A stretch of DNA of 34,140 bases from contig CAZCPV010000002.1 of assembly GCA_964500765.1 (NCBI GenBank), positions 1 to 34,140 of the forward strand, read 5' to 3'. The first letter of the stretch is position 1. Each line of letters begins with the position of its first letter. The notes beneath the pieces were generated by a model. It saw nothing but the letters and a program-made list of their open reading frames with translations. It was not told the DNA's origin and ran no database searches. The DNA is from an uncultured Draconibacterium sp. (GTDB taxonomy: Bacteria; Bacteroidota; Bacteroidia; Bacteroidales; JAADGE01). This document shows positions 5,242 to 16,010 of the stretch, piece by piece. Made by a program: the position numbers and the translations under genes.

Positions 5242-5610
5242 ATGAAGGCATTGGCAACTATCGGTTTATTAATTTTATCGAATACTTTTATGACTTTTGC
5301 TTGGTACGGACATTTAAAATTTTCGGAATGGGATTGGTTTAAAAAATTGGGCTTAATTTCTATAATTTTAATAAGTTGGGGTTTGGCTTTATTTGAATAT
5401 TTTTTTCAGGTTCCGGCAAATCGGATAGGATATAAAGGAAACGGAGGACCTTTCAATTTGATGCAACTAAAAGTTATACAGGAAGTTATAACGCTCACGG
5501 TTTTTACGGTTTTCTCTGTTATCTTTTTTAAAAATCAAGAATTAAAATTAAATCATTTAATCGGCTTTGTATTTTTGGTGTTAGCCGTTTACTTTATTTT
5601 TAAAGATTAA
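5242..5610 (+). CDS. small DMT-superfamily membrane protein (DUF486-like)
   Basis: The ORF track starts at a TTG (5221). The first in-frame ATG at 5242 gives MKALATIGLLILSNTFMTFAWYGHLKF..., typical of the DUF486/DMT small 4-TM family. Confidence 0.7.
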   Translation: MKALATIGLLILSNTFMTFAWYGHLKFSEWDWFKKLGLISIILISWGLALFEYFFQVPANRIGYKGNGGPFNLMQLKVIQEVITLTVFTVFSVIFFKNQELKLNHLIGFVFLVLAVYFIFKD

Positions 5611-6296
5611 ATCTGATTTTTATCTTTTAAAGCAACTTCTCCTTTTACGAGCCAAGAAATGCCGAATGCCGCAAGGGCAAGTGTTTCAAGCCAAAAAACG
5701 GGGTGATATTTTTCAAGTTCGGGATATTTATTTTCAAAAAACCACATCCAAACGGTAATCAGAATTAAGCTTCCGAATATAACTAAACCGCAAGTTCTGT
5801 AAAGAATATTTCTTTTTTTCTTTTCGGGTGTAAAAATTACATTTTTGCTGTCTGTTCGGGTAAATAAGAAGAACGAATTAACAGAAAGTGTAATAAAAAA
5901 CAGCATCGCCGAAGCAAGGTGTACAAATCTTACCCAACCGGGGCGTTGAAGTTGCGGAATAATATAGTCGCAATTAATTATCATTTCTCCGGCAGGCGGA
6001 AAAAATGCAATGCCGAGAGCAAAAATAAATGTTAATATTCCGACAATTCTGTCTTTGTAGTCGTAGCCCCTGTATGCAAACATAAAAAATGCGAGTGCAG
6101 ATAAGATACTTATGAGAACATTTCGCATTACGGTATTGTAATATACACTTATTGATTTTTGAATACTCGTACAATCTCCTAAAGTAACAGCTCCGACGGC
6201 AACAATCGTCGGCAGCAAAATCCCCAAAATCCCGATGGCTCTTCTTAATGTTAAAACTGTTTTTTTATATTGTTCGGATAATTCGTTCTGTTTCAT
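5607..6296 (-). CDS. multi-pass integral membrane protein, family uncertain
   Basis: The ORF track gives 5607..6329 with a GTG start. I prefer the first ATG (MKQNELSEQYKK...) at 6296. About 6 hydrophobic segments. The 3' end overlaps the convergent DMT gene by 4 nt. Confidence 0.55.
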   Translation of the reverse strand: MKQNELSEQYKKTVLTLRRAIGILGILLPTIVAVGAVTLGDCTSIQKSISVYYNTVMRNVLISILSALAFFMFAYRGYDYKDRIVGILTFIFALGIAFFPPAGEMIINCDYIIPQLQRPGWVRFVHLASAMLFFITLSVNSFFLFTRTDSKNVIFTPEKKKRNILYRTCGLVIFGSLILITVWMWFFENKYPELEKYHPVFWLETLALAAFGISWLVKGEVALKDKNQI

Positions 6297-6307
6297 TATT
6301 TTTCTTT

Positions 6308-6315
6308 CAAAGATA
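6308..6315 (-). promoter_or_regulatory. candidate -7 box (TATCTTTG) for the membrane-protein gene
   Basis: Exact TAnnTTTG on the minus strand 11 nt upstream of the ATG at 6296, implying a very short leader. It lies just downstream (in the gene's sense) of the CACAGA repeat. Confidence 0.3.
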
Positions 6316-6325
6316 AAAAATTTCC

Positions 6326-6346
6326 TCACACAGACTACACAGATTC
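6326..6346. repeat. CACAGA tandem-repeat motif, copy A (tcacacagactacacagattc)
   Basis: 18 of 21 positions are identical to 15112..15132, in the same orientation. Two CACAGA units are spaced 9 nt apart. Confidence 0.5.
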
Positions 6347-6562: not shown

Positions 6563-7504
6563 TTATTGACAGTTATTTATTTGATAAAATACCCCTCTTT
6601 CCAAACGAATATTTTTAATTTTTTTTTGTTCCTCAAGAACACCGAGATATTTATTAATTTCGTTAATATGAATTCCGAGAATTTTATGTAAATCGTCAAG
6701 TGTGCACGGTCTTCGTGCTATGGTTTCGAGAATTGCGGTTTCAATATCTTTACGATATGAATTTACTTTTTGCCGTTCGGGAACGGATGCTATAATTTCA
6801 ACATTATTGAGTTGCCAGTAATCAATAATTTTTTGAAGTTGTTCTCCGGTTGCGGCTTGCAATTCGGAAACGGTGCCGGGTCTGTCCAAAGTATTCAGTT
6901 GAACTTTATCGGGTTTAATTCTTTTTATTGCCGTTTTAAGGGCATCTATATTTTCTTTACTGTCGTTAAATCCGGGAATAATTAATATTTCAAGCCAGAT
7001 TTCACCTTTAAAAATAGTTGAAAATTTTTCAATTCCTTGAATATAGTTTTGAATATAAATAGTTTGTGCAGGTCTGTTAATTTTATTAAACGAACTTTGC
7101 ACGGCAGCATCCAACGAGGGTAATACAACATCGGCATTTATAATTTCATTTCTTACCGTCTCGTCGGAAAGTAGTGTGCCGTTTGTTAATACGGCAACCG
7201 GAATTTCAGGTTTAATTTTCTTAATAAAATTCAAAACATCACCGATACGAGAATTTAAGGTCGGTTCGCCGGAGCCCGAAAAAGTAATATAATCAGGGTC
7301 GGGATTTTTTGAGAAAAAGTCTTTTAATTCATTTACAACTTTATCGAAGAGAATATATTCTTTTCTTTCGAGCGTTAATTTTGTCGAAGCACCGCATTCG
7401 CAATAAACACAATCGAGTGTGCATACTTTATGCGGCACTAAATCTACGCCCAAGGACATTCCCAATCGACGTGAAGGCACCGGACCGAACAGATATTTAT
7501 ACAT
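6563..7504 (-). CDS. radical SAM enzyme (COG0731-like) with a C-terminal winged-helix-like tail
   Basis: N-terminus is MYKYLFGPVPSRRLGMSLGVDLVPHKVCTLDCVYCECG (CxxxCxxC cluster motif). A GSGEPTL SAM-binding motif is present. The C-terminal ~60 aa (ILETIARRPCTLDDLHKILGIHINEINKYLGVLEEQKKI) looks like a wHTH. Confidence 0.85.
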   Translation of the reverse strand: MYKYLFGPVPSRRLGMSLGVDLVPHKVCTLDCVYCECGASTKLTLERKEYILFDKVVNELKDFFSKNPDPDYITFSGSGEPTLNSRIGDVLNFIKKIKPEIPVAVLTNGTLLSDETVRNEIINADVVLPSLDAAVQSSFNKINRPAQTIYIQNYIQGIEKFSTIFKGEIWLEILIIPGFNDSKENIDALKTAIKRIKPDKVQLNTLDRPGTVSELQAATGEQLQKIIDYWQLNNVEIIASVPERQKVNSYRKDIETAILETIARRPCTLDDLHKILGIHINEINKYLGVLEEQKKIKNIRLERGVFYQINNCQ

Positions 7505-7545
7505 TTTTAATTAAAATTGAGGTTTTAGTTACGGGCTTGCGTATT

Positions 7546-7998
7546 TTAGTTATAATCAATACGTGTTTTTTCGTCAGCCGTTGTCGGTTTTATTTTTTCC
7601 TGCCAAGCGGTTGAGTCCCACGTTCCGATTTTTTTGTGAATATCTAAATATTTTTGCGGTATCGGATGTGTTCCTATAATCACTTTCATATTGTATTTTT
7701 CTTTAATAACCGCCTTAAAATCATCAATATACGGGCAAGGCGGATAGCCGACAACAAATCCGGTTGCGAGATGGATAATTTCGGCTCCGTTTTTTTTCAT
7801 TTCTTCGGGTGCATATTCAATATTTCCGCCGGGGCAACCGCCGCAATTTGTATAGCCGACTAATTCGACTTCTTCATTTTTCCCGTAAATATCAAAAGCT
7901 CCGTCTCGGTTTTGCAATGCTCTGAAACATTTGCCTCCGGCACAATTGCGATATCTGTCGCAAATAATAATTCCGATTTTTGTTTTTTTATTCTTCAT
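7546..7998 (-). CDS. CGGC-domain protein (putative metal-binding)
   Basis: 150 aa, Cys-rich. Motifs ICDRYRNCAGGKC and YTNCGGCPGG are the signature of the CGGC domain family. Confidence 0.8.
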   Translation of the reverse strand: MKNKKTKIGIIICDRYRNCAGGKCFRALQNRDGAFDIYGKNEEVELVGYTNCGGCPGGNIEYAPEEMKKNGAEIIHLATGFVVGYPPCPYIDDFKAVIKEKYNMKVIIGTHPIPQKYLDIHKKIGTWDSTAWQEKIKPTTADEKTRIDYN

Positions 7999-8007
7999 GT
8001 GTAAAAT

Positions 8008-8787
8008 TTAAAAATTAAAAATCATTCCCGTTTTAACTTGTTGAATTTTAAATTCGTTATAAAATAGGGTCAAAGCCGGAAGTTGAGTACAATGTGAAGG
8101 TAATAAATTTTCGACTTTATTCTTCTTAAAATATTCGACAGTTTTAAGTGTTTGCTTATTTTGAATTTTCAGATGAAAACCGCCTATAACAGCTTTTACG
8201 GTGTTGATACCCGTGATTTTCTTTGCATATTCAACAATATTGCAAATGCCTGAATGTGAGCATGCCGATACAATTATTAATTCATTATTTTTTATTATTG
8301 CCAATGCGGTATCATCCGGAACAAAATCATCCTCTCCGGTTTCACGAACAAAAGCGGTTGTTTGGGCTTCAAAATTAGTTAATCTCGGAATTTCACCGAG
8401 AAAAATAATTTTTTCGGTAATATAATAAGGTGTTTTGCTTTCAGTTATTGAAAATTTATTTTTTAATTCTTCAAAGCTTAATTCCAAACCGATATTTTTA
8501 TTTTCGCCTTTCCGGAAACGTTTCGCAAAAACATCGGGATGGCATATTAAGGGTTTGTTTTCAATGTATTTTAATCCGTTGCCGTGGTCCCAATGCCCGT
8601 GGCTTAAAATAATTACATCCGTATCGTTAAGATTAATATTTAATTTTTCGGCATTTTTCAAAAATACATCGCTTGCTCCGGTATCAAAAAGTATTTTTTT
8701 ATTGTCGTATTCTATAAAATAGGATAAGCCGTGTTCGGCTGAAAAATATTCTCCGGCTGTATTTTCCGTAAGTATTGTCAGTTTCAT
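8008..8787 (-). CDS. MBL-fold metallo-hydrolase (COG1237-like)
   Basis: 259 aa. HxHxDH motif as ILSHGHWDHGNG, with later SACSHSG and GGFHL motifs. Confidence 0.85.
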   Translation of the reverse strand: MKLTILTENTAGEYFSAEHGLSYFIEYDNKKILFDTGASDVFLKNAEKLNINLNDTDVIILSHGHWDHGNGLKYIENKPLICHPDVFAKRFRKGENKNIGLELSFEELKNKFSITESKTPYYITEKIIFLGEIPRLTNFEAQTTAFVRETGEDDFVPDDTALAIIKNNELIIVSACSHSGICNIVEYAKKITGINTVKAVIGGFHLKIQNKQTLKTVEYFKKNKVENLLPSHCTQLPALTLFYNEFKIQQVKTGMIFNF

Positions 8788-8803
8788 TTTAACCGTAATA
8801 TAA

Positions 8804-9097
8804 TTAAAGACCTTTCCATCCTTCGGTTTCCATTTGCATAAAACGAGCTTTTTCTCCTTCTGTCATCAATACTGTTTCATATTCAAATTTTACACCCATA
8901 TTTAAAATCGGTTGAGAAACCGAAAATATTAAATCGTGCAGTATCGGAATATTCGGAAAAGGCAATGCAAAAATCACTTTTGCCGTATTGTTTTCAAAAA
9001 TAATATCTCTTACGATACCTAATTTTACGAGTGAAAAATTAATAGCCGGATGCATAACATGCTCAATGCTTTTGTAAATATCTTCTTTGGTTTTCAT
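8804..9097 (-). CDS. DUF59 / MIP18-like Fe-S assembly family protein (Cys-less variant)
   Basis: 97 aa. The N-terminal pattern KEDIYKSIEHVMHPAINFSLVKLGIVRDI matches the DUF59 fold signature. The protein has no cysteine. Confidence 0.6.
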   Translation of the reverse strand: MKTKEDIYKSIEHVMHPAINFSLVKLGIVRDIIFENNTAKVIFALPFPNIPILHDLIFSVSQPILNMGVKFEYETVLMTEGEKARFMQMETEGWKGL

Positions 9098-9099
9098 CG

Positions 9100-9531
9100 T
9101 TAATTATCTGAATATTTTGTTAATATTTCGTTTGAAATTTTAAAAAGTTCGAAATTTGTATCTTTATTTTTGACTTCTTCATGTATTTGAATCATATTTT
9201 TTTCTAAAATTTTCAAGGTATTATTAATATCGGAATTTAAAACAATTATCGGAATAAATTTTTTATTTATAATATTTATATTTTTGCCGAATTGCAGAGA
9301 AATCAATACTTTAACATCAAATTTTTTAAGATATTTCGTTATTTCCCGACCTTTTATTTTTGAACCGTGTTTTGTTTCTTCATCAATATCTCTTTTAGTG
9401 TTTTCAATTTCATCAATAAAAACCAATCGTTTTGAATCGTATTCGTAGATGATATATTTATCGGCATCACCGAAATGTTTATTTTGAAAATCACCTTGTT
9501 CGTTAACTGCAAAAGCAAATCTTAAACCCAT
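9100..9531 (-). CDS. NifB/NifX/NafY-fold (dinitrogenase FeMo-cofactor-binding domain family) protein, copy 2
   Basis: The track ORF extends to 9657 and overlaps the upstream gene. The internal ATG at 9531 (MGLRFAFAVNEQGDFQNKHFGDADKYIIYEY...) leaves a 10-nt gap and begins with the family HFG-x-A-x-x-(F/Y)-x-IY motif. Confidence 0.8.
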   Translation of the reverse strand: MGLRFAFAVNEQGDFQNKHFGDADKYIIYEYDSKRLVFIDEIENTKRDIDEETKHGSKIKGREITKYLKKFDVKVLISLQFGKNINIINKKFIPIIVLNSDINNTLKILEKNMIQIHEEVKNKDTNFELFKISNEILTKYSDN

Positions 9532-9541
9532 ATTTTTTCTG

Positions 9542-11398
9542 TTAAATGTTAATTGCCGATTCATAAGCACTGTGTATAGCTTCTTGAGCTTTCCCCGGTT
9601 TTCGGGCATCTCCGATGATGTAAACAGGAATGTTTCCCGCTTTTTTAAACGGAACATAGCTTTTCATTCCTACGGCAACAACAATTTTGTCGATACCATT
9701 GATGTTTTTTTGTCCTTCGTTGCCTTCAAGAATTACGGTTTTCCCTTTGATTTCAACAACGGTATGTCCTGTTATAATTTTCGTTTTTTTCTCTTTTAAT
9801 TTTTTTATTGTTAAGGATTTTTCAATCATTTCCATTCCTCTTGCAATTTCATCAAGCATTTCGACAATATAAACTTTATTGTTGTTATCAACAAGTTTTG
9901 AAGCAATTTCAATTCCGATTAAGCCGCCGCCAATTACCAAAACATTTTTATTTACGGGTAAGTGTTCGTCTTCCAAAAATTCTGTCCAATAATATTCATT
10001 TAAACCTTTTATTCGGGGAATATTCGGAATTGCACCCGAAGCCATAATAATACCGTCGTAATTTTCGCTTAACAAATCGGGTTTCAGGGCTTCTTTTTTT
10101 ATAATATTGATATTTTTTTCGGAAATTTCTTTGATATAATAATCGATAATTCGTTTTAAACTTTGTTTGTGAGGCGGTAAATATGCTAAATTAAATTGCC
10201 CGCCGAGTGTATTTTTTTCGTACAAATCGACTTTATGTCCTCTTTCCGAAAGGGTAATTGCCGATTGCATCCCTGCCAAGCCGCCTCCGATAACGGCATA
10301 TTTTTTCGGTTTATCCGTTTTAGTTACTTTCAGTAAATTTGTATTAACCAGAGGATTAACAACACATCCCAAACCTTTGCCTTGTTTTACGCCTCCGAGG
10401 CATCCTTCGGCACAAGCCAAACACGGGCGGATAGTTCCTTCAACTTTATTTAAATATTTTCCGATAAAATTTTCGTCGGCAACTAATGCTCTTCCTACGG
10501 CAATATATTCTGCATTATACTTATCTTCAAGCAATTGAATATCTTCTTTTGTATTTATTTGTCCGACAAAAATAACCGGTATCGAAAGTTCTTTTTTTAT
10601 TTTTTCCGCCGTTTCCCAAGTTTTTCCTTTCGGGATAAACATGTGTTGAAAAAACCAAGGCGGAGTTGAACATACCGAACCGGCGGAAACATGAACGGCA
10701 TCAAATCCTATGGTTTCCAATTTTTCGGTAAATTTAATCATTTCTGGAATATGAAAACCGTTCGGAATTATTTCATCGCCGCTTATTCTTGCAATAAGGG
10801 GCACGTCAATTGCTTTTCTGACAGTTGTTGCAAGTTCGAGCGGAAATTTTATTCTGTTTTCAAAAGAACCTCCGTATTCGTCGGTTCTGTCGTTTACGGC
10901 GGGAGAAATAAATTGGGCAAGCAAATAACCGTGTCCGAATTGAATTTCAATCATGTCGAAGCCCGAAGCAACGGCTCTTTGTGCACTTTCAACGAACATA
11001 TCAATTACTTTATTCATCATTTTCCTGTTCATTTTTTCGGGAACTTTGCCTCCGTTTTCGCATGCTTTGTCGGTTGACGACCACCAATAATTGCCGGGTA
11101 TTTTCGGATTTGCCATTCTGCCGGGATGGTTTAAATGTGCAATTGATTTTGCACCGTTAGCGTAAATCAGATTGGTTAAATCTTTCAATCCGTGCATTTT
11201 ATCGTTGTTGTCAATACCCAATTGTGTGGGAATTTCACGTAAGCCGGCATCCATATATAAAGGTTCGATTGTAATTGCACCGATATGCTTACTTCGTACA
11301 TTATAAAAATCTATGTGTTTTTGGTTAACAAAACCCGGCTTGTCGCAATACCCGAGTTTTACGGGAGCCATTATAAATTTATTTCTTAATGTATTCAT
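9542..11398 (-). CDS. OYE/2,4-dienoyl-CoA-reductase-type oxidoreductase (FMN TIM barrel + [4Fe-4S] + FAD/NAD(P) domains)
   Basis: 618 aa. N-terminal old-yellow-enzyme-like barrel (IEIQFGHGYLLAQFISP), cluster motif CLACAEGCLGGVKQGKGLGC, and two dinucleotide folds (VIGGGLAGMQ, VIGGGLIGIE). Confidence 0.88.
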   Translation of the reverse strand: MNTLRNKFIMAPVKLGYCDKPGFVNQKHIDFYNVRSKHIGAITIEPLYMDAGLREIPTQLGIDNNDKMHGLKDLTNLIYANGAKSIAHLNHPGRMANPKIPGNYWWSSTDKACENGGKVPEKMNRKMMNKVIDMFVESAQRAVASGFDMIEIQFGHGYLLAQFISPAVNDRTDEYGGSFENRIKFPLELATTVRKAIDVPLIARISGDEIIPNGFHIPEMIKFTEKLETIGFDAVHVSAGSVCSTPPWFFQHMFIPKGKTWETAEKIKKELSIPVIFVGQINTKEDIQLLEDKYNAEYIAVGRALVADENFIGKYLNKVEGTIRPCLACAEGCLGGVKQGKGLGCVVNPLVNTNLLKVTKTDKPKKYAVIGGGLAGMQSAITLSERGHKVDLYEKNTLGGQFNLAYLPPHKQSLKRIIDYYIKEISEKNINIIKKEALKPDLLSENYDGIIMASGAIPNIPRIKGLNEYYWTEFLEDEHLPVNKNVLVIGGGLIGIEIASKLVDNNNKVYIVEMLDEIARGMEMIEKSLTIKKLKEKKTKIITGHTVVEIKGKTVILEGNEGQKNINGIDKIVVAVGMKSYVPFKKAGNIPVYIIGDARKPGKAQEAIHSAYESAINI

Positions 11399-11424
11399 TA
11401 TTAATTATTTAAAATTATATAAAA

Positions 11425-12459
11425 TTAAAAACCTGCTGATAAAACGGCAAATCCGAATAGTAAAGCAACAGAAATATTAATTAATTTAACGATTAGAAAT
11501 GCTTTTCTGTTTTCCGCCAACATGGGCAACATGCCGTGTCCGTCTTGTGAAATTGAGCTTGCAAGCAAAATACCGAAAGGGATATTTCCGGATGCAAATA
11601 ATGTAACAAAAATCAGATGCGGTCCGGATTCGGGGATAATTCCGATTAAAACGGCAATTAATAAAACAATATACATATTTTTTGACATCCAAGTTTCGAC
11701 ATCAATATAATTCATTAAAACAGCCATAAAAAACAGGGTTCCGAATGTCCATAAAAATATTTTTGGAAGATGTACTTTTACGACATGTTCCCAAAGATGT
11801 TTTTGTATAAAATGGTCGGGAACGCTGAAAACGATGAATAATGAAAATCCGGCAGTCAGTAAAAGGGTGATTTTTACCCATTCTTTTGAATTTTCGGCTA
11901 AAATTCCGGTTAAAATTCCGACTATTAATCCGGTTAATAAAATAAACAATACGATTCGGTGTAAAGACGGCTTTAACAGCTGTGGAAGAATAGTTTTTTT
12001 ATTAAAACAAACACATTTTTCTTCTTTATGCAGAGCAAATCCGAGTTTATTGTTTTTAAAAATAAATTTTTCGGGTTCAATGAATTTATCGGTCAGCCAA
12101 CCGGCAAAAATACCGATTAAAAAAATTATAAGCGTTAAAAAAGCAGCTTTTACGGGGAACATTGCAAACATTACAAATGCTTCATCGCCGCTTGTAGCAA
12201 TCATGGTTGCAACGATTGCTCCGAGCGATAACATTCTGTGTGTAAACATGGTAACGGCGGTAAATGCACCGAGGCAACCGGGAATTGCTCCGAGAAATGC
12301 GGAAAACAGATATTGTTTAAATTTGTTTGTCGAAATTGTTTTTCGCCATAACCCTTTTGTCTGAACATTGATGTATTCAATTGCAAGCATCATGGTAAAC
12401 ACAAATCCGGTAATAACCAAAGCGTGTTTAAATGTATTAAATAACTCCGAAAATATCAT
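11425..12459 (-). CDS. ~10-TM permease resembling the putative heavy-metal/arsenical exporter (ArsP_2-like) family
   Basis: 344 aa, highly hydrophobic. Motifs GAIPGCLGAF and IIPESGPHLIFVTLF...SQDGHGMLPMLA are as I remember them for this family. The family assignment needs an HMM check. Confidence 0.55.
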   Translation of the reverse strand: MIFSELFNTFKHALVITGFVFTMMLAIEYINVQTKGLWRKTISTNKFKQYLFSAFLGAIPGCLGAFTAVTMFTHRMLSLGAIVATMIATSGDEAFVMFAMFPVKAAFLTLIIFLIGIFAGWLTDKFIEPEKFIFKNNKLGFALHKEEKCVCFNKKTILPQLLKPSLHRIVLFILLTGLIVGILTGILAENSKEWVKITLLLTAGFSLFIVFSVPDHFIQKHLWEHVVKVHLPKIFLWTFGTLFFMAVLMNYIDVETWMSKNMYIVLLIAVLIGIIPESGPHLIFVTLFASGNIPFGILLASSISQDGHGMLPMLAENRKAFLIVKLINISVALLFGFAVLSAGF

Positions 12460-12540
12460 ATTTACAGTCTGTCTTTAAAATAAAACATTCTTGATAAACA
12501 GTCAGCGTATTAATTTTAAGTTGATATGTAACACAGATAT

Positions 12541-12858
12541 TTATTTTACGGGGTCCCAAATTACAAGAATTAAAGCACCTTTTTCCGATTTGAAAGGACC
12601 GTGTTCGTCGCCTTCCGAAAAAATTTGAAAAGAACCTTTCGGAATTTTTTTGCCGTTACTTTCGTATTCGCCTTCAAGCACAAAATGTTGCTCTGCGGTA
12701 ATATGAGAGTGCGGAGCCATATAAAATCCGGCAGGTAATTTTAATAAAACGGTTTTTGCTCCGTTGTCGTCTCTTAAAACTTTTCGCAAGGTTCCTTCGT
12801 AATATTCGTCGGCATTTTCCCAATTCAAATCATCATACAAATTCAGTAAATTTTTCAT
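12541..12858 (-). CDS. cupin-domain protein
   Basis: 105 aa. Motif PHSHITAEQHFVLEGEY...GDEHGPF is typical of a small single-domain cupin. A strong GGAGG lies 7 nt upstream of the ATG. Confidence 0.7.
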   Translation of the reverse strand: MKNLLNLYDDLNWENADEYYEGTLRKVLRDDNGAKTVLLKLPAGFYMAPHSHITAEQHFVLEGEYESNGKKIPKGSFQIFSEGDEHGPFKSEKGALILVIWDPVK

Positions 12859-12946
12859 AATAATTCCTCCTTTTTTTATGAATATATTTTAAACATATAC
12901 AAGTTACCGCATATTTTCATAATTCGGAAACAAAAATCGGATTATT

Positions 12947-13288
12947 TTAAGAAAATATGTTCAGTTCTCCTTGTTTATATGCTTCATAAGCTTGTTTTAC
13001 GGTCATTTCGCCTGCACCGGTAAATATTTTCAAACCTGCTTGTTTTAAAACGGTTGCGGCATTTCCTCCGGGTCCGTTTCCGGTAATTAATATATCGGCT
13101 TGTAAATCAAATAATTTTTGGGCGGTTTTGGGTCCTGCTCCGTGTGCTTCTTGTGTTGAATCGCTGTTATCAACATAATTTATTTTGTTTGTTTCATCGT
13201 CATAAACAAGAAAAAACTCGGTTCTTCCGAAACGCGGATCCATCATTGAGTCCCAATCTTTTCCTTTTGTAGTGAATGCAATTTTCAT
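12947..13288 (-). CDS. NifB/NifX/NafY-fold (orange-protein-like) protein, copy 1
   Basis: 113 aa. Sequence MKIAFTTKGKDWDSMMDPRFGRTEFFLVYD...AHGAGPKTAQKLFDLQADILITGNGPGGNA matches the dinitrogenase FeMo-cofactor-binding domain family. Confidence 0.85.
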   Translation of the reverse strand: MKIAFTTKGKDWDSMMDPRFGRTEFFLVYDDETNKINYVDNSDSTQEAHGAGPKTAQKLFDLQADILITGNGPGGNAATVLKQAGLKIFTGAGEMTVKQAYEAYKQGELNIFS

Positions 13289-13299
13289 TTTCAGTTATT

Positions 13300-14175
13300 T
13301 TAATTTATAATTTCAATTATTTTTTCCCAAGTATTTTTTATTGTTGTTTTACTTCTGCTGTCTATATATTCAACAACTGTTACACCTTCGGTCATTGCTT
13401 CGGTAAATATTTTATCATAAGGCAGCTTTGCAAGCTTATCAATATTTTCGGCAGATAAAAATTGCTCAATTTTATCGGAAACATTTTTATTTAAATCAAA
13501 TTTATTGATAATACAACCGGCTTTCAGGTTGAATTTTTTCACCAATTCGTACACTCGTTTTAAATCGTGCAAACCCGAAACGGTGGGTTCGGTAACCAAG
13601 ACAACGTAAGAAGCACCCGAAAGTGATGATACTACGGGGCAACCTACACCGGGCGAGCCGTCAACAATTATATATTTCTTATTTAATTTTTCGGCGAGCT
13701 CTTTGGCTTTATTTTTTACCTGTGCCACTAATTTTCCGGAATTATCGGCACCTGTTGCCAGTTTTGCATGAACCATTTTGCTGCCGGTTTTTATGTTTGA
13801 GATATACCAATTCCCGACATTCAAATCAATATTAAGAATTGTGTGGGTCGGGCAAATCTTGGAACAGTATCCGCAACCTTCGCAGTTTAAGGGATTTACA
13901 ATATATTTTTCGTTTACGATATCAATTGCATCGAATCGGCAAACATTTTTGCATTCGCCGCATTGAATGCAATCTTCTTGTTGAATAAGGGCAAGTTCGC
14001 CGCTGAAAAATTCTTCCGAAAATTCATAATCAGGATTCATAAGAATGTGCATGTCGGCAGCATCAACATCGCAATCGGCGACAATTACATCTTTTCCGCC
14101 CAACACTGCAAATGATGCGGTTACGGATGTTTTTCCCGTTCCGCCTTTTCCGGAAATAATTACGATTTCTTTCAT
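13300..14175 (-). CDS. MinD/ParA-type P-loop ATPase with inserted 2x[4Fe-4S] ferredoxin domain (B)
   Basis: Deviant Walker A SGKGGTGKTS. Two CxxCxxCxxxC motifs (CIQCGECKNVC, CEGCGYCSKICP). ATGA start/stop overlap with the upstream paralogue, and GGAGG 6 nt upstream of the ATG. Confidence 0.88.
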   Translation of the reverse strand: MKEIVIISGKGGTGKTSVTASFAVLGGKDVIVADCDVDAADMHILMNPDYEFSEEFFSGELALIQQEDCIQCGECKNVCRFDAIDIVNEKYIVNPLNCEGCGYCSKICPTHTILNIDLNVGNWYISNIKTGSKMVHAKLATGADNSGKLVAQVKNKAKELAEKLNKKYIIVDGSPGVGCPVVSSLSGASYVVLVTEPTVSGLHDLKRVYELVKKFNLKAGCIINKFDLNKNVSDKIEQFLSAENIDKLAKLPYDKIFTEAMTEGVTVVEYIDSRSKTTIKNTWEKIIEIIN

Positions 14176-15035
14176 TTCCTGCCTCCTTTCACTTCATTAA
14201 ACAAAAATTTTTTTATTTTTTTTAATTCTTCGGCAACTTCCGGTATTTTTTTATAAAGTAATTTTCCTTTTGAATATAATTCGGCAATTTCCCGTTTGTC
14301 CGGTATTTTTGCAATAATCGGTATATTTTGTTTTTCGCAAAATTGCTCGACTTTATTATTTCCTGTTCCGTATCGGTTTATTACGACACCGAATTTTTTA
14401 TTAAGTTCTTCGACTGTTTCAACGGCAAGTTTTAAATCGTTTAAGCCAAAAGGTGTCGGCTCGGTAATTAAAATAACGAAATCGGCATCTTTTACGGTTT
14501 CAATAACCGGGCAGGAGGTACCGGGCGGCGAATCGAAAATTTTGATATGATTTTTGAAATGAGCATTAACATATTGAATGGTTTGCTTGATTAAAGGAAC
14601 GGCTTGTTCTTCGCCTATAATCAAACGACTTTCGATAAAATCGAGTTTGTTAATTTTGAAATGCGATAAATCGCCGATTTTTTTCGAAATCATCGGCAAG
14701 GCATCGGTCGGGCACAATTCTGAACAGGCATAGCATGAATGACACAATTCCGGGAAAACCAAAATCATTGTTCCGAGTTGTATGACAGCATGGAAATTGC
14801 AGTTTTTTTGACATTCGCCGCAAAGTGTACAAGCATTTTTATTCCATTGCGGAATCATTTTAAATTTTTCTTCCTCTGAAATCAAATTGCCTTTCAAAAA
14901 TAGACCCGAATTGGGCTCTTCAACGTCTGAATCAACTAAAACAACATTATCGTTTTCGGCAAGGAAAGATGCCAAATTAGTCGATAATGTTGTTTTTCCC
15001 GTTCCTCCTTTACCGCTTGCTATGGCTATTGTCAT
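14172..15035 (-). CDS. MinD/ParA-type P-loop ATPase with inserted 2x[4Fe-4S] ferredoxin domain (A)
   Basis: Walker A SGKGGTGKTT. Ferredoxin motifs CTLCGECQKNC and CHSCYACSELCP. Confidence 0.88.
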   Translation of the reverse strand: MTIAIASGKGGTGKTTLSTNLASFLAENDNVVLVDSDVEEPNSGLFLKGNLISEEEKFKMIPQWNKNACTLCGECQKNCNFHAVIQLGTMILVFPELCHSCYACSELCPTDALPMISKKIGDLSHFKINKLDFIESRLIIGEEQAVPLIKQTIQYVNAHFKNHIKIFDSPPGTSCPVIETVKDADFVILITEPTPFGLNDLKLAVETVEELNKKFGVVINRYGTGNNKVEQFCEKQNIPIIAKIPDKREIAELYSKGKLLYKKIPEVAEELKKIKKFLFNEVKGGRK

Positions 15036-15111
15036 AAATTATTTATTTGAATAAAGCATATAAGTAATACTAAAGAATCTTAATAAATAACTGCATTTAA
15101 TATTTATTTTA

Positions 15112-15139
15112 TCACACAAATTTCACAGATTCTCACAGA
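15112..15139. repeat. CACAGA tandem-repeat motif, copy B (tcacacaaatttcacagattctcacaga)
   Basis: Three CACA(G/C)A units at ~10-nt spacing in the 198-nt gap upstream of MinD-Fd A. The first 21 nt match 6326..6346 at 18 of 21 positions. Confidence 0.5.
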
Positions 15140-15233
15140 AAAAATGTGTTCTTTTTATGAGTTAAGTATAAAAAGACTTTGCGGGTTTAAATCTGCCAAG
15201 ATTCAAAACTGTAATCCTCTGATATTAATTCAA

Positions 15234-15467
15234 TTATTTATTTTTGTTTAAAAGTTCTTCTCGAATCATTGTATGACCGCAGGCGGGACATTTTATTGTC
15301 GTACATTTTACGCCTTGTTGATGCGGGATTTTTTCGCCGCATTTTGCACAAACACAAAATCCGCCGGTTCCGAAAGCACCGCCGTTATTCCTTCCGTGTC
15401 CTTGCCCGCGTCCGAGACCTTTTCCTCCGCCTCGTCCGAGCCCTTTACCTGTTTGAAATATTCCCAT
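15234..15467 (-). CDS. small protein with a Gly/Arg-rich N-terminus and a C-terminal Cys-rich zinc-ribbon-like motif
   Basis: 77 aa. GKGLGRGGGKGLGRGQGHGRNNGG is followed by CVCAKCGEKIPHQQGVKCTTIKCPACGH. Coding status is supported by position in the cluster. Confidence 0.6.
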   Translation of the reverse strand: MGIFQTGKGLGRGGGKGLGRGQGHGRNNGGAFGTGGFCVCAKCGEKIPHQQGVKCTTIKCPACGHTMIREELLNKNK

Positions 15468-15507
15468 TTTTGTTCGATTTTAAGTTAAAACAATTAATAA
15501 AAAGTAA

Positions 15508-15539
15508 AATCATCGGATAAACAAATTTATCCGATGATT
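15508..15539 (-). terminator. perfect 14-bp stem / 4-nt loop hairpin; candidate leaky intrinsic terminator or attenuator after the DUF5320 gene
   Basis: aatcatcggataaa-caaa-tttatccgatgatt. On the minus-strand RNA it starts 7 nt after the TAG stop and is followed by UUACUUUUUAUU. Confidence 0.5.
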
Positions 15540-15546
15540 AAACAAA

Positions 15547-15840
15547 CTAACTTTCATCTTTCAGTTCAGAAAGTCGTTTTTCTAATGACACTAATTGATC
15601 TTTCAGGGTATTAATTTCGTTTTCAAGAATTGTTTTTTCGGAAACGTTTGTCAGTCCTTGGTTATGGAAACTTCCTGCATATCCGAAACCCCTTCCGAAG
15701 CCGTGTCCTCTTCCGAAGCCGGCTCCGAAACCTCTTCCTCGAAAAGTTCTTGTTTCGTCGGATACGCCGGCACAATACCCTAAGCGTCTTCCTGTCATTG
15801 CTCCTCTTCCGAGCGGTCCTGTTCTGTCAAATCCGGGCAT
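15547..15840 (-). CDS. DUF5320-like small protein (Gly/Arg-rich N-terminal region + C-terminal coiled coil)
   Basis: 97 aa. MPGFDRTGPLGRGAMTGRRLGYCAG... is the family N-terminus as I recall it. GRGFGAGFGRGHGFGRGFGY repeats follow, with a C-terminal heptad-like LENEINTLKDQLVSLEKRLSELK. GGAGG lies 5 nt upstream of the ATG. Confidence 0.72.
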   Translation of the reverse strand: MPGFDRTGPLGRGAMTGRRLGYCAGVSDETRTFRGRGFGAGFGRGHGFGRGFGYAGSFHNQGLTNVSEKTILENEINTLKDQLVSLEKRLSELKDES

Positions 15841-15937
15841 AATTACCTCCTTTTTAAATGATTAAAACTTAAGTTCATTTATTAAAAAATATAAAACATC
15901 ACTGATTAAATATAACAGTAAATCATTTTTTATACTG

Positions 15938-15945
15938 CAAATATA
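15938..15945 (-). promoter_or_regulatory. candidate -7 box (TATATTTG) for the DUF5320-led cluster
   Basis: Exact TAnnTTTG on the minus strand between the upstream terminator (16011..16036) and the ATG at 15840. This implies a ~90-nt leader. Confidence 0.35.
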
Positions 15946-16010
15946 ATGCACTTATGTTCATAATACAATTTTTTTTTATGTGTTTTACGACAGAAAAGGT
16001 ATTCGGGAAT

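Follow-up and report, generated by a model that had tools for sequence, protein, structure and literature searches.

Positions 6563-15840 of a 34,140-nucleotide (nt) stretch of DNA from an uncultured Draconibacterium sp. (contig CAZCPV010000002.1 of assembly GCA_964500765.1; the whole stretch is called the window below) carry 13 consecutive co-directional open reading frames (ORFs) on the minus strand. They form one promoter-proximal unit made of a conserved core, which resembles the orange protein (ORP) genes of Desulfovibrio vulgaris, and two accessory blocks. The core comprises a DUF5320 protein, a Gly-rich Zn-ribbon protein, two ferredoxin-MinD ATPases (A and B) and an orange-protein homologue of the NifX fold (NifX1). 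The first accessory block encodes a cupin, an ArsP_2 permease and a reductase of the old yellow enzyme (OYE) type, and the second encodes another NifX-fold protein (NifX2), a DUF59-like protein, a metallo-beta-lactamase-fold (MBL) protein, a CGGC-domain protein and a radical S-adenosylmethionine (SAM) enzyme. Bacteroidota and neighbouring phyla widely share a modular pool of accessory genes, of which this arrangement is one permutation. We read the whole, with a probability of roughly 45%, as an operator-controlled ORP-type machine that handles non-covalently held inorganic metal-sulfur species and is equipped with reductant and export modules.

We collected related loci with three independent seeds (the radical SAM protein, an alignment of NifX1 and an alignment of ArsP_2) over contigs of one genome per species. 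The ORFs of the fetched loci, which are cited here by our own L numbers, were labelled with hidden Markov models (HMMs) made from the window proteins and from recurrent neighbours, and representatives of those neighbours were checked against Pfam. Frequencies refer to the 32 orange-protein-seeded loci of at least 16 kb. The ferredoxin-ATPase pair occurs in 100% of these long loci, the Gly-rich Zn-ribbon protein in 97%, DUF5320 in 94% and DUF134, a predicted DNA-binding protein, in 84%. They are followed by a DUF89/ARMT1-like protein (69%), CGGC (66%), MBL (62%), NifX2 (59%) and radical SAM (50%), and then by a CoA-disulfide-reductase-like flavoprotein (41%), a pyridoxal phosphate (PLP)-type Cys/Met lyase and a glyoxalase/VOC protein (38% each), cupin (34%), ArsP_2 (31%), DUF4405 (25%) and a TrmO_N-like protein (19%); the OYE/FadH reductase, DUF59 and a ThrRS-editing-like protein each reach 16%. 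Nearly all of these families share the strand of the seed.

The loci come from Bacteroidales, ‘Chlorobiota’, Neomarinimicrobiota, Cloacimonadota, Calditrichia, one spirochaete and one clostridial metagenome-assembled genome (MAG), and the cultivated species among them include Caldithrix abyssi, Ancylomarina, Lutibacter and Ca. Sulfidibacterium hydrothermale. They are not near-identical strains (identities 32-83%). The labelling is not promiscuous, because most radical SAM loci of Desulfobacterota show none of the pool families. The first-pass annotation, made on the letters of the window, had described a fusion of the core with further genes and had asked whether the added genes accompany paired ferredoxin-MinD genes elsewhere. 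They do: radical SAM, CGGC, MBL, DUF59, reductase and exporter genes co-occur with the pair on the same strand in several phyla, and the adjacency is clearly not confined to this genome. The idea of a one-off fusion is replaced by that of a modular pool.

Gene order in this pool is shuffled between genomes, with content retained. The most frequent junctions are those inside the core, ATPase A to ATPase B (83 unique loci), ATPase B to NifX1 (72 loci) and DUF5320 to Zn-ribbon (48 loci); the accessory junctions of the window also recur, namely CGGC to radical SAM (16 loci), ArsP_2 to OYE and NifX2 to MBL (11 loci each), OYE to NifX2 (8 loci) and cupin to ArsP_2 (5 loci). The nearest relatives of the window (L001/L089 and L088) have nearly identical content in a different order. 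Two common members of the pool, DUF134 and DUF89, are missing from the window, and no remnants of pool genes, these two included, were found in its gaps or elsewhere in its length. The reductase slot is filled across genomes by non-orthologous flavoproteins, either of the OYE/FadH type or CoA-disulfide-reductase-like. In two Methanomicrobiales loci and one Syntrophomonadaceae locus (L054, L080 and L064), the radical SAM gene abuts the ATPase pair and NifX genes, and one archaeal locus of this set also has CGGC, DUF134 and DUF5320.

Parts of the pool also occur by themselves. A recurrent module of DUF134, Zn-ribbon, cupin and ArsP_2, with or without OYE, is found without the ATPase pair, as are radical SAM-ArsP_2 pairs. 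In Lutibacter citreus and a Flavobacteriaceae MAG (L174, L186), Zn-ribbon, VOC, DUF89, in some cases CGGC, radical SAM and ArsP_2 genes stand together without ATPase pair, DUF134 or operator; this module lacks the ORP-like core, which indicates that part of the accessory pool can work independently of it. In two other loci (L171:2898-6808 and L197), genes that read as SufB-, SufC- and SufD-like lie directly upstream of an operator-controlled DUF134-Zn-ribbon-cupin-ArsP_2 module, a placement that hints at a link to Fe-S assembly. One relative (L010) has an extra NifX-fold gene with an FGHC motif, and no such gene is present in the window.

The clusters share a control element. A perfect 14-bp palindrome, TGAACATATGTTCA, is enriched upstream of their first genes: at no more than one mismatch we found 64 unique sites in 3.1 Mb of fetched loci, and 64 of 64 lie at cluster starts, just upstream of the first cluster gene or at its mis-extended start. 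By our own estimate, chance would yield on the order of one site. Operator-bearing loci are the window, L081, L113, L127, L162, L225 and about 60 others, from several phyla, and the first gene behind the operator is mostly DUF134, otherwise DUF5320, or Zn-ribbon or ArsP_2 in mini-modules. Promoters of the Bacteroidota type have the form TAnnTTTG/TTTG. The aligned context of 61 sites, ..TTtg..TGaACATATGTTCATTAtaTttg, shows that the operator takes up the spacer that separates the -33 box from the -7 box, where repressor sites classically lie. We found no published description of the palindrome TGAACATATGTTCA in the searchable literature.

Weaker copies accompany this site. In the window, a degenerate second copy, TGAACTTAAGTTTT, with 4 mismatches lies at 15864-15877, about 23 nt upstream of the DUF5320 start codon; similar weak sites occupy the matching position in L001, L088 and L122, and in other loci the first site is followed, roughly 20-350 nt downstream, by a good second one. 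A further operator-like sequence, AGAAAATATGTTCA, with 2 mismatches (12950-12963) lies across the 3' end of the orange-protein gene, with the cupin gene 92 nt further downstream. It may be a chance match or an internal control point for the cupin-ArsP_2-OYE block: two sites at no more than 2 mismatches are reached in 6% of shuffles of the window. Two other modes of control were considered and rejected. The core of the palindrome resembles the Gram-positive LexA box, but all 64 sites are at these clusters only, and the published SOS motifs of Bacteroidetes, GGA-N5-TCC and CTAA-N5-TTAG, differ from it (PMC8565304). A scan for the sigma-54 element TGGCAC-N5-TTGC, as in D. vulgaris, gave chance-level matches only, none of them near the cluster.

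We looked for the protein that might act at this site. The operator is present where DUF134 heads the cluster, including the compact DUF134-Zn-ribbon-cupin-ArsP_2(-OYE) module without ATPases, and is absent from individually checked loci in which no DUF134 was detected, among them the Lutibacter loci and four loci with radical SAM-ArsP_2 pairs. It is likewise missing, despite DUF134, from two bacterial loci (L177, L213) and from the archaeal and Syntrophomonadaceae loci. The co-occurrence suggests that DUF134 is likely an autoregulatory repressor, which, as the gene is absent from the window, must then be encoded elsewhere in the window's lineage. The DUF134 proteins of the clusters (L010:1-393 and others) end in a Zn-ribbon and a Gly/His/Cys-rich tail (…GGFGHGHCC…), plausibly a metal- or cluster-sensing module.

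Table 1 Features of the 13-gene unit and of its control region, in the direction of transcription.
Feature	Position	Strand	Basis
Operator TGAACATAAGTGCA	15947..15960	-	2 mismatches to TGAACATATGTTCA; between -33 and -7 elements
-7 promoter box TATATTTG (TAnnTTTG)	15938..15945	-	sequence
Shine-Dalgarno AAAGGAGG, strong	15846-15853	-	sequence
DUF5320 protein	15547..15840	-	Pfam 91.5 bits
Stem-loop, 14-bp stem and U-rich tract	15508..15539	-	directly after DUF5320 stop; -20.2 kcal/mol, z = -5.6
Gly-rich Zn-ribbon protein, 6-Cys	15234..15467	-	conserved motif CVCaKCGeK..H..G.KCT..KCP.CG
MinD/ParA-type ATPase A, inserted 2x[4Fe-4S] ferredoxin domain	14172..15035	-	Pfam CbiA and Fer4
MinD/ParA-type ATPase B, distinct paralogue, architecture as ATPase A	13300..14175	-	Pfam CbiA/ParA and two Fer4 motifs
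NifX1, NifX-fold orange-protein (ORP/Orp8) homologue	12947..13288	-	Pfam Nitro_FeMo-Co 64.4 bits
Cupin, small metal-binding, Cupin_7	12541..12858	-	conserved HxH..E..H residues
ArsP_2-family polytopic permease	11425..12459	-	Pfam 135 bits
OYE/FadH-type flavoprotein, FMN domain, [4Fe-4S] motif and FAD/NAD(P) domain	9542..11398	-	Oxidored_FMN and Pyr_redox_2
NifX2, second NifX-fold protein, Cys-free, HFGDA motif	9100..9531	-	Pfam Nitro_FeMo-Co 30.8 bits
DUF59/FeS_assembly_P-like protein	8804..9097	-	Pfam 26.8 bits against cut-off 23.5
COG1237-type metallo-beta-lactamase-fold protein	8008..8787	-	Lactamase_B; HxHxDH motif intact
CGGC-domain protein, six conserved Cys	7546..7998	-	Pfam 105 bits
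Radical SAM enzyme	6563..7504	-	Pfam Radical_SAM 64 bits; single CX3CX2C motif

The layout of the unit (Table 1) bears out the earlier count of 13 minus-strand coding sequences with gaps from -4 to 198 nt: the 12 intergenic distances calculated from the coordinates are, in the direction of transcription, 79, 198, -4, 11, 88, 81, 26, 10, 2, 16, 9 and 41 nt, and the ATGA in which the stop of ATPase A and the start of ATPase B had been said to overlap can be read in the sequence. The gene order from ATPase B through radical SAM (ten genes covered) is identical in an independent ENA assembly (L245), whose radical SAM protein is 98% identical to that of the window, so the arrangement is not an assembly artefact. 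An exact-sequence search with the radical SAM protein of the window found nothing, and one with the CGGC protein succeeded. The genes to either side are unrelated housekeeping genes: one flank has OmpA/PD40, glycosyltransferase, RecR, LOG, Nramp and HtpG, and a DMT-family protein and an SNF2 helicase make up the other. The base composition of the window is not unusual, and an Rfam search of the window, including the 198-nt and other gaps, returned no match and thus no riboswitch or known RNA. Following the radical SAM gene after a 233-nt gap, a same-strand gene at 5607-6329 (-) encodes a 240-residue hydrophobic, probably membrane-bound protein without a Pfam match. A homologue sits 52 nt after the radical SAM gene in L001, and L245 has a cut-off same-strand gene at the matching position. 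This gene may be a lineage-specific 14th member, an uncertain one, with homologues in only 2-3 loci.

The stem-loop behind the DUF5320 gene is conserved in position, with differing sequences (L001:2689-2759, L087:7929-8010, L088:7874-7943, L122:7885-7982 and L081:1668-1781), and z-scores across loci run from -3.4 to -5.7. It may be a partial terminator or a transcript stabiliser that sets the stoichiometry of DUF5320, and its conserved position suggests that DUF5320 is made in excess over the downstream proteins.

Family calls were made by Pfam and NCBIfam profile searches of the window proteins, in which the families first assigned to the named proteins hold. The DUF5320 protein combines an Arg/Gly/aromatic-rich N-terminal region (62 residues, among them 19 Gly, 9 Arg and 9 Phe/Tyr/Trp; isoelectric point (pI) 11.5; one conserved Cys) with a coiled-coil-like C-terminal helix. 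The N-terminus of the Zn-ribbon protein is Gly/Arg-rich as well (36 residues, 17 of them Gly, pI 12). This protein has a conserved six-Cys Zn-ribbon motif; it gives only sub-threshold matches to zinc-ribbon Pfam models and no Pfam domain is found in its 120 best homologues, and it is a member of an unannotated family. In composition, these two N-terminal segments match the description of the tail of IssA (PMC5524996).

Both ATPases, over 70 homologues per paralogue, display a deviant Walker A motif (GKGGTGKT in ATPase A), two ferredoxin motifs and a Cys in the sequence D-x-P-P-G-x-x-C-P-V after Walker B (DsPPGTSCPV in ATPase A). The position of this Cys recalls the switch II cluster ligand of NifH. 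Both ATPases also give weak matches to Fer4_NifH, and a match to the PF10609 ‘NUBPL iron-transfer P-loop NTPase’ model was seen as well. NifX1 is an acidic, tail-less protein of 113 residues (pI 5.0), and its early identification as an orange-protein relative stands: it can be aligned over its whole length to the orange protein of D. gigas (2wfb, E 3.5e-16) and to TM1290 (E 1.2e-18). NifX1, NifX2, the DUF59-like protein and the cupin all lack Cys, which fits non-covalent binding of an inorganic cluster, as reported for orange protein (PMC6345978).

We compared the unit with the D. vulgaris ORP system, whose composition we took from two studies (PMC6345978, PMC8359166). The proteins of this system are of the Fe-S or metal-sulfide kind, and Orp3, Orp4 and Orp8 co-purify (PMC6345978). 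A further subunit, Orp5, is a small [2Fe-2S] protein. The window unit has two paralogous MinD-type ATPases with two ferredoxin motifs each, which Pfam architecture and motifs liken to Orp3/Orp4, and next to them a NifX-fold protein that by sequence is homologous to orange protein and would correspond to Orp8; like the ORP genes, window-type clusters have so far been found in anaerobe-typical lineages. The first-pass annotation went further and equated the core with the gene set of the ORP complex, which the following differences contradict. MrpORP (Orp9, an Mrp/NBP35 domain fused to a Di-Nase domain) is absent: the scores in its NCBIfam model are 53, 41 and 27 bits against a cut-off of 450, and the other ORFs of the window include no such gene. 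Neither do they include an OrpR or other enhancer-binding-protein gene. The D. vulgaris genes form two divergent operons with OrpR and sigma-54 promoters between them, whereas in the window one operon stands behind a -33/-7 promoter and its palindromic operator. The five listed ORP subunits (PMC6345978) include neither DUF5320 nor the Zn-ribbon protein, both near-universal partners here, and a large variable accessory pool (radical SAM, CGGC, MBL, DUF89, flavoproteins, ArsP_2 and others) is present here. For these reasons we call the cluster ORP-like and not a member of the D. vulgaris type.

A second comparison is with IssA, the thioferrate Fe-S storage protein of Pyrococcus furiosus, whose NifX-fold domain (IPR003731) binds an inorganic anionic Fe-S species with an incomplete set of Cys ligands. 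The thioferrate anion is proposed to be wrapped by a segment of IssA that is disordered, cationic and rich in Arg, Gly and aromatic residues (PMC5524996). In the window, neither NifX-fold protein has a tail, one being acidic (pI 5.0) and the other near-neutral (pI 8.0), and the cationic Gly-rich segments are on separate small proteins; since the tail is not on the NifX domain, the unit is not IssA-type storage. It differs further in its ATPase pair and operon context, and nothing in it points to nanoparticles. The ATPases also share the deviant Walker A P-loop superfamily with Mrp/NBP35/ApbC and Nbp35-Cfd1, carriers that act as dimers in Fe-S delivery, but they have an inserted double-ferredoxin domain, a single Cys after Walker B and no C-terminal CxxC bridging motif. 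Literature searches on DUF5320, the CGGC domain, PF08821, PF17253 and the extended cluster returned nothing relevant.

These comparisons suggest a working model. We infer the complex, its ligand, the direction of flow and the identity of the regulator as follows. ATPases A and B would form a heterodimer of the MinD/NifH/Nbp35 class. With ATP and with electrons that travel via its four ferredoxin-type [4Fe-4S] clusters, it would build, reduce or pass on an inorganic metal-sulfur species, be it Fe-S, a thioferrate-like or a thiometallate-like anion. The Cys-free NifX-fold proteins would carry this species non-covalently, as orange protein carries its Mo/Cu sulfide cluster, and the Arg/Gly/aromatic-rich N-termini of the DUF5320 and Zn-ribbon proteins would bind the anion in trans, like the cationic tail of IssA, with the hairpin permitting an excess of DUF5320. 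The flavoprotein would give reducing power derived from NAD(P)H; CGGC, radical SAM, MBL and DUF59 would perform or support a chemical step on the cluster or its ligand; and ArsP_2 would move the product, or a surplus of it, across the membrane. Expression would be repressed via the operator by a DUF134-type regulator encoded elsewhere in the genome. A role in metallocluster assembly or trafficking had already been proposed in the first-pass annotation, and it is a role that we, too, infer. A more specific formulation seems to us rather doubtful as a whole: a widespread system under the control of DUF134, found in anaerobic Bacteroidota and allied phyla and with methanogen relatives, that makes, reduces and traffics non-protein-ligated inorganic metal-sulfur species, in which Gly/Arg-rich small proteins replace the IssA tail and which has a dedicated radical SAM/CGGC step and a dedicated permease.

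Several points weigh against the metal-sulfur machine. The analogy with the IssA tail rests on composition, and segments rich in Gly and Arg might just as well be nucleic-acid binders. Taken one by one, the accessory genes occur in no more than 16-66% of core loci, and some modules lack the ATPase pair, so that the function of these genes may be a separable one. The 13-gene unit could be split at the 198-nt gap and at the hairpin. The proposal of DUF134 as the likely autoregulatory repressor at the operator rests on co-occurrence, and DUF134 is not in the window. In Desulfobacterota (L025, L027, L028 and others), the radical SAM family sits beside genes that read as cobalamin lower-ligand or nucleotide-loop-like (cobS, cbiB, cobD and cobU-like). 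As late as 2021, what the ORP proteins do in D. vulgaris itself was described as unclear (PMC8359166).

We wondered whether the permease instead marks the unit as a system for the detoxification or efflux of a thiophilic metal(loid) (thioarsenic, thiomolybdate/Cu, Sb, Se or Te) in sulfidic habitats. Orange-protein-type carriers would then sequester the anion, the reductase and cupin would alter its redox state or ligands, ArsP_2 would export it and DUF134 would be a metal-sensing repressor. The permease belongs to Pfam ArsP_2 (PF11449), the domain of the ArsP family of organoarsenical efflux permeases (TC 2.A.119) in PMC7176098, and scores above the cut-off of the NCBIfam model arsenic_eff (‘arsenic efflux protein’; 147 bits against 100), with invariant Cys62, His144 and Cys149/Cys151 and SGDE and DGHG motifs. 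The compact operator-controlled module without the ATPase pair would suit such a function, as would the Mo/Cu sulfide cluster bound by orange protein (PMC6345978) and two families that by sequence are SAM-dependent-methyltransferase-like, each found near ArsP_2 in six loci. However, it is the family score only that places the permease with arsenic efflux, and ‘arsenic’ is the name of a family of which we found no tested member. In 80 loci, the unlabelled genes that recur up to 4 kb away from ArsP_2, whose clusters were inspected by eye without dedicated ars HMMs, include none of arsR, arsC, acr3, arsA and arsM, and the window contains no ars regulatory, reductase, methylase or ATPase genes. 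The recurrent partners of the ArsP_2 relatives are instead genes of the pool: DUF134, Zn-ribbon, cupin, radical SAM and OYE reductase. We therefore do not take the unit for an ars operon, and a metal(loid) reading of the permease has only the family name behind it. ArsP_2 is moreover found in only 31% of long core loci, and the ATP-driven double-ferredoxin machine, three Fe-S-related genes and SufBCD and PLP-lyase neighbours point to the building of clusters and not to their removal. We consider detoxification unlikely.

The reductase of the same block retains its [4Fe-4S] motif (CxxCxxxC...C). It resembles BaiCD, BilR and the mycofactocin FadH, yet scores far below their cut-offs.

A second rival, and a less probable one, is the biosynthesis of a new complex metallocofactor by a ‘split NifB/NifX/NifH’ logic that feeds a target enzyme: modification of a cluster or of its organic ligand would fall to the radical SAM enzyme together with CGGC, MBL and DUF89, the role of carriers to the NifX-fold proteins and that of a NifH-like maturation reductase to the ATPase pair. 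The unit does share with NifB/NifX/NafY/NifH maturation a NifX fold as carrier of a complex cluster, a radical SAM gene nearby and a SIMIBI-class ATPase with Fe-S clusters. NifX-fold genes stand beside the radical SAM gene, which even in archaeal loci (L054, L080) directly adjoins NifX genes and the ATPase pair, both ATPases show weak Fer4_NifH matches, and CGGC is extremely conserved. In contrast to the Nif system, the window is without nifHDK, nifEN and nifB; no nif genes were found among the ORFs of the 34-kb window, in agreement with the initial view that this is not nitrogenase maturation, and scores in nitrogenase-type models are far below cut-off (22.7 bits against 112 for NifX and 18.7 against 343 for NifB).

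The radical SAM enzyme itself shows how far the likeness to NifB goes. Its place in the superfamily is given by the CX3CX2C motif, whose cluster ligands C28, C32 and C35 are invariant, and a partial TIM-barrel core; no NCBIfam subfamily reaches its cut-off, and the enzyme carries the JGI label COG0731 ‘wyosine synthetase’. The winged-helix C-terminal domain noted earlier is backed by an AlphaFold2 (AF2) model, with helices and a beta-hairpin at about residues 250-310, and by precomputed WHD_DprA/FaeA matches in homologues; it contains a conserved Cys267. When the fold of the model is compared with solved structures, those of NifB rank high (8-10, 14 and 20), but viperin, PFL-AE, TYW1 and MoaA match equally well (TM-scores 0.45-0.5), so that the fold match is generic. 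NifB requires ligands for extra clusters. With its single canonical motif and one winged-helix Cys, the window enzyme does not have them, and a NifB-like role was rejected. The gene is also absent from half of the long core loci, and no candidate recipient enzyme is conserved in the neighbourhood.

The other proteins of this block are as follows. NifX2 (pI 8.0) has no Gly-rich tail. Its assignment to the NifX fold was correct, but the start first given, 9657, was not: the protein most likely starts at 9531 (143 residues), as in the independent gene call of L245. DUF59 proteins such as SufT usually keep a conserved Cys. The DUF59-like protein of the window has no Cys at all and is therefore an atypical member. 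The MBL protein has 2p4z and TM1679, both uncharacterised, as its closest PDB relatives. CGGC is very highly conserved, with 72-98% identity across the 119 best matches besides the window's own protein. Its AF2 model (predicted local distance difference test, pLDDT, of 72) has a Rossmann/flavodoxin-like alpha/beta fold, and a comparison of this model with the PDB yielded nothing at E<=1e-3: its similarity to CfbA, B12-binding and Argonaute MID domains is of a generic Rossmann-like kind, and no closer assignment of the fold resulted.

More improbable than either rival is a MinD-like role in positioning or cell division, the one originally put forward for the D. vulgaris ORP proteins; the accessory genes would then be neighbours only. 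The ATPases do belong to the MinD/ParA class, and in D. vulgaris loss of OrpR leads to morphological defects and MrpORP is polar (PMC8359166, PMC6345978), but division genes are not linked in any locus, the conserved partners are metal- or cluster-binding proteins and the D. vulgaris division hypothesis is itself described as unproven (PMC8359166). Finally, we strongly disfavour a chance juxtaposition of unrelated small same-strand operons, to which the gaps of 198, 88, 81 and 79 nt, the terminator-like hairpin after the first gene and the variation of accessory genes between genomes might point: every window family recurs on the same strand near the core, in 16-100% of the long loci and in several phyla, where a single-copy gene of a 3-4 Mb genome would be expected to lie no more than 20 kb from a given point well under 1% of the time, content outlasts the shuffling of order, and the shared operator is found only at cluster starts.

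What is new here is that the extension of the core is a widespread modular pool, together with the shared operator and its candidate regulator, the position-conserved hairpin and the composition-based link to IssA. The ORP-like core of Bacteroidota and neighbouring phyla thus sits in a much larger gene pool behind a shared operator, one that includes a radical SAM enzyme, the uncharacterised CGGC and DUF5320 proteins, an unannotated Zn-ribbon family, flavoprotein reductases and a permease. The defined operator, the candidate regulator, the list of co-expression partners and the cultivated carrier species are experimental handles on this system. If the metal-sulfur reading is true, functions would be assigned to several domains of unknown function at once, a new pathway for a metal-sulfur cluster or cofactor would be at hand and the orange-protein machinery would finally gain a function: anaerobes in sulfidic settings would handle inorganic metal-sulfur species outside the Isc, Suf and Nif paradigms.

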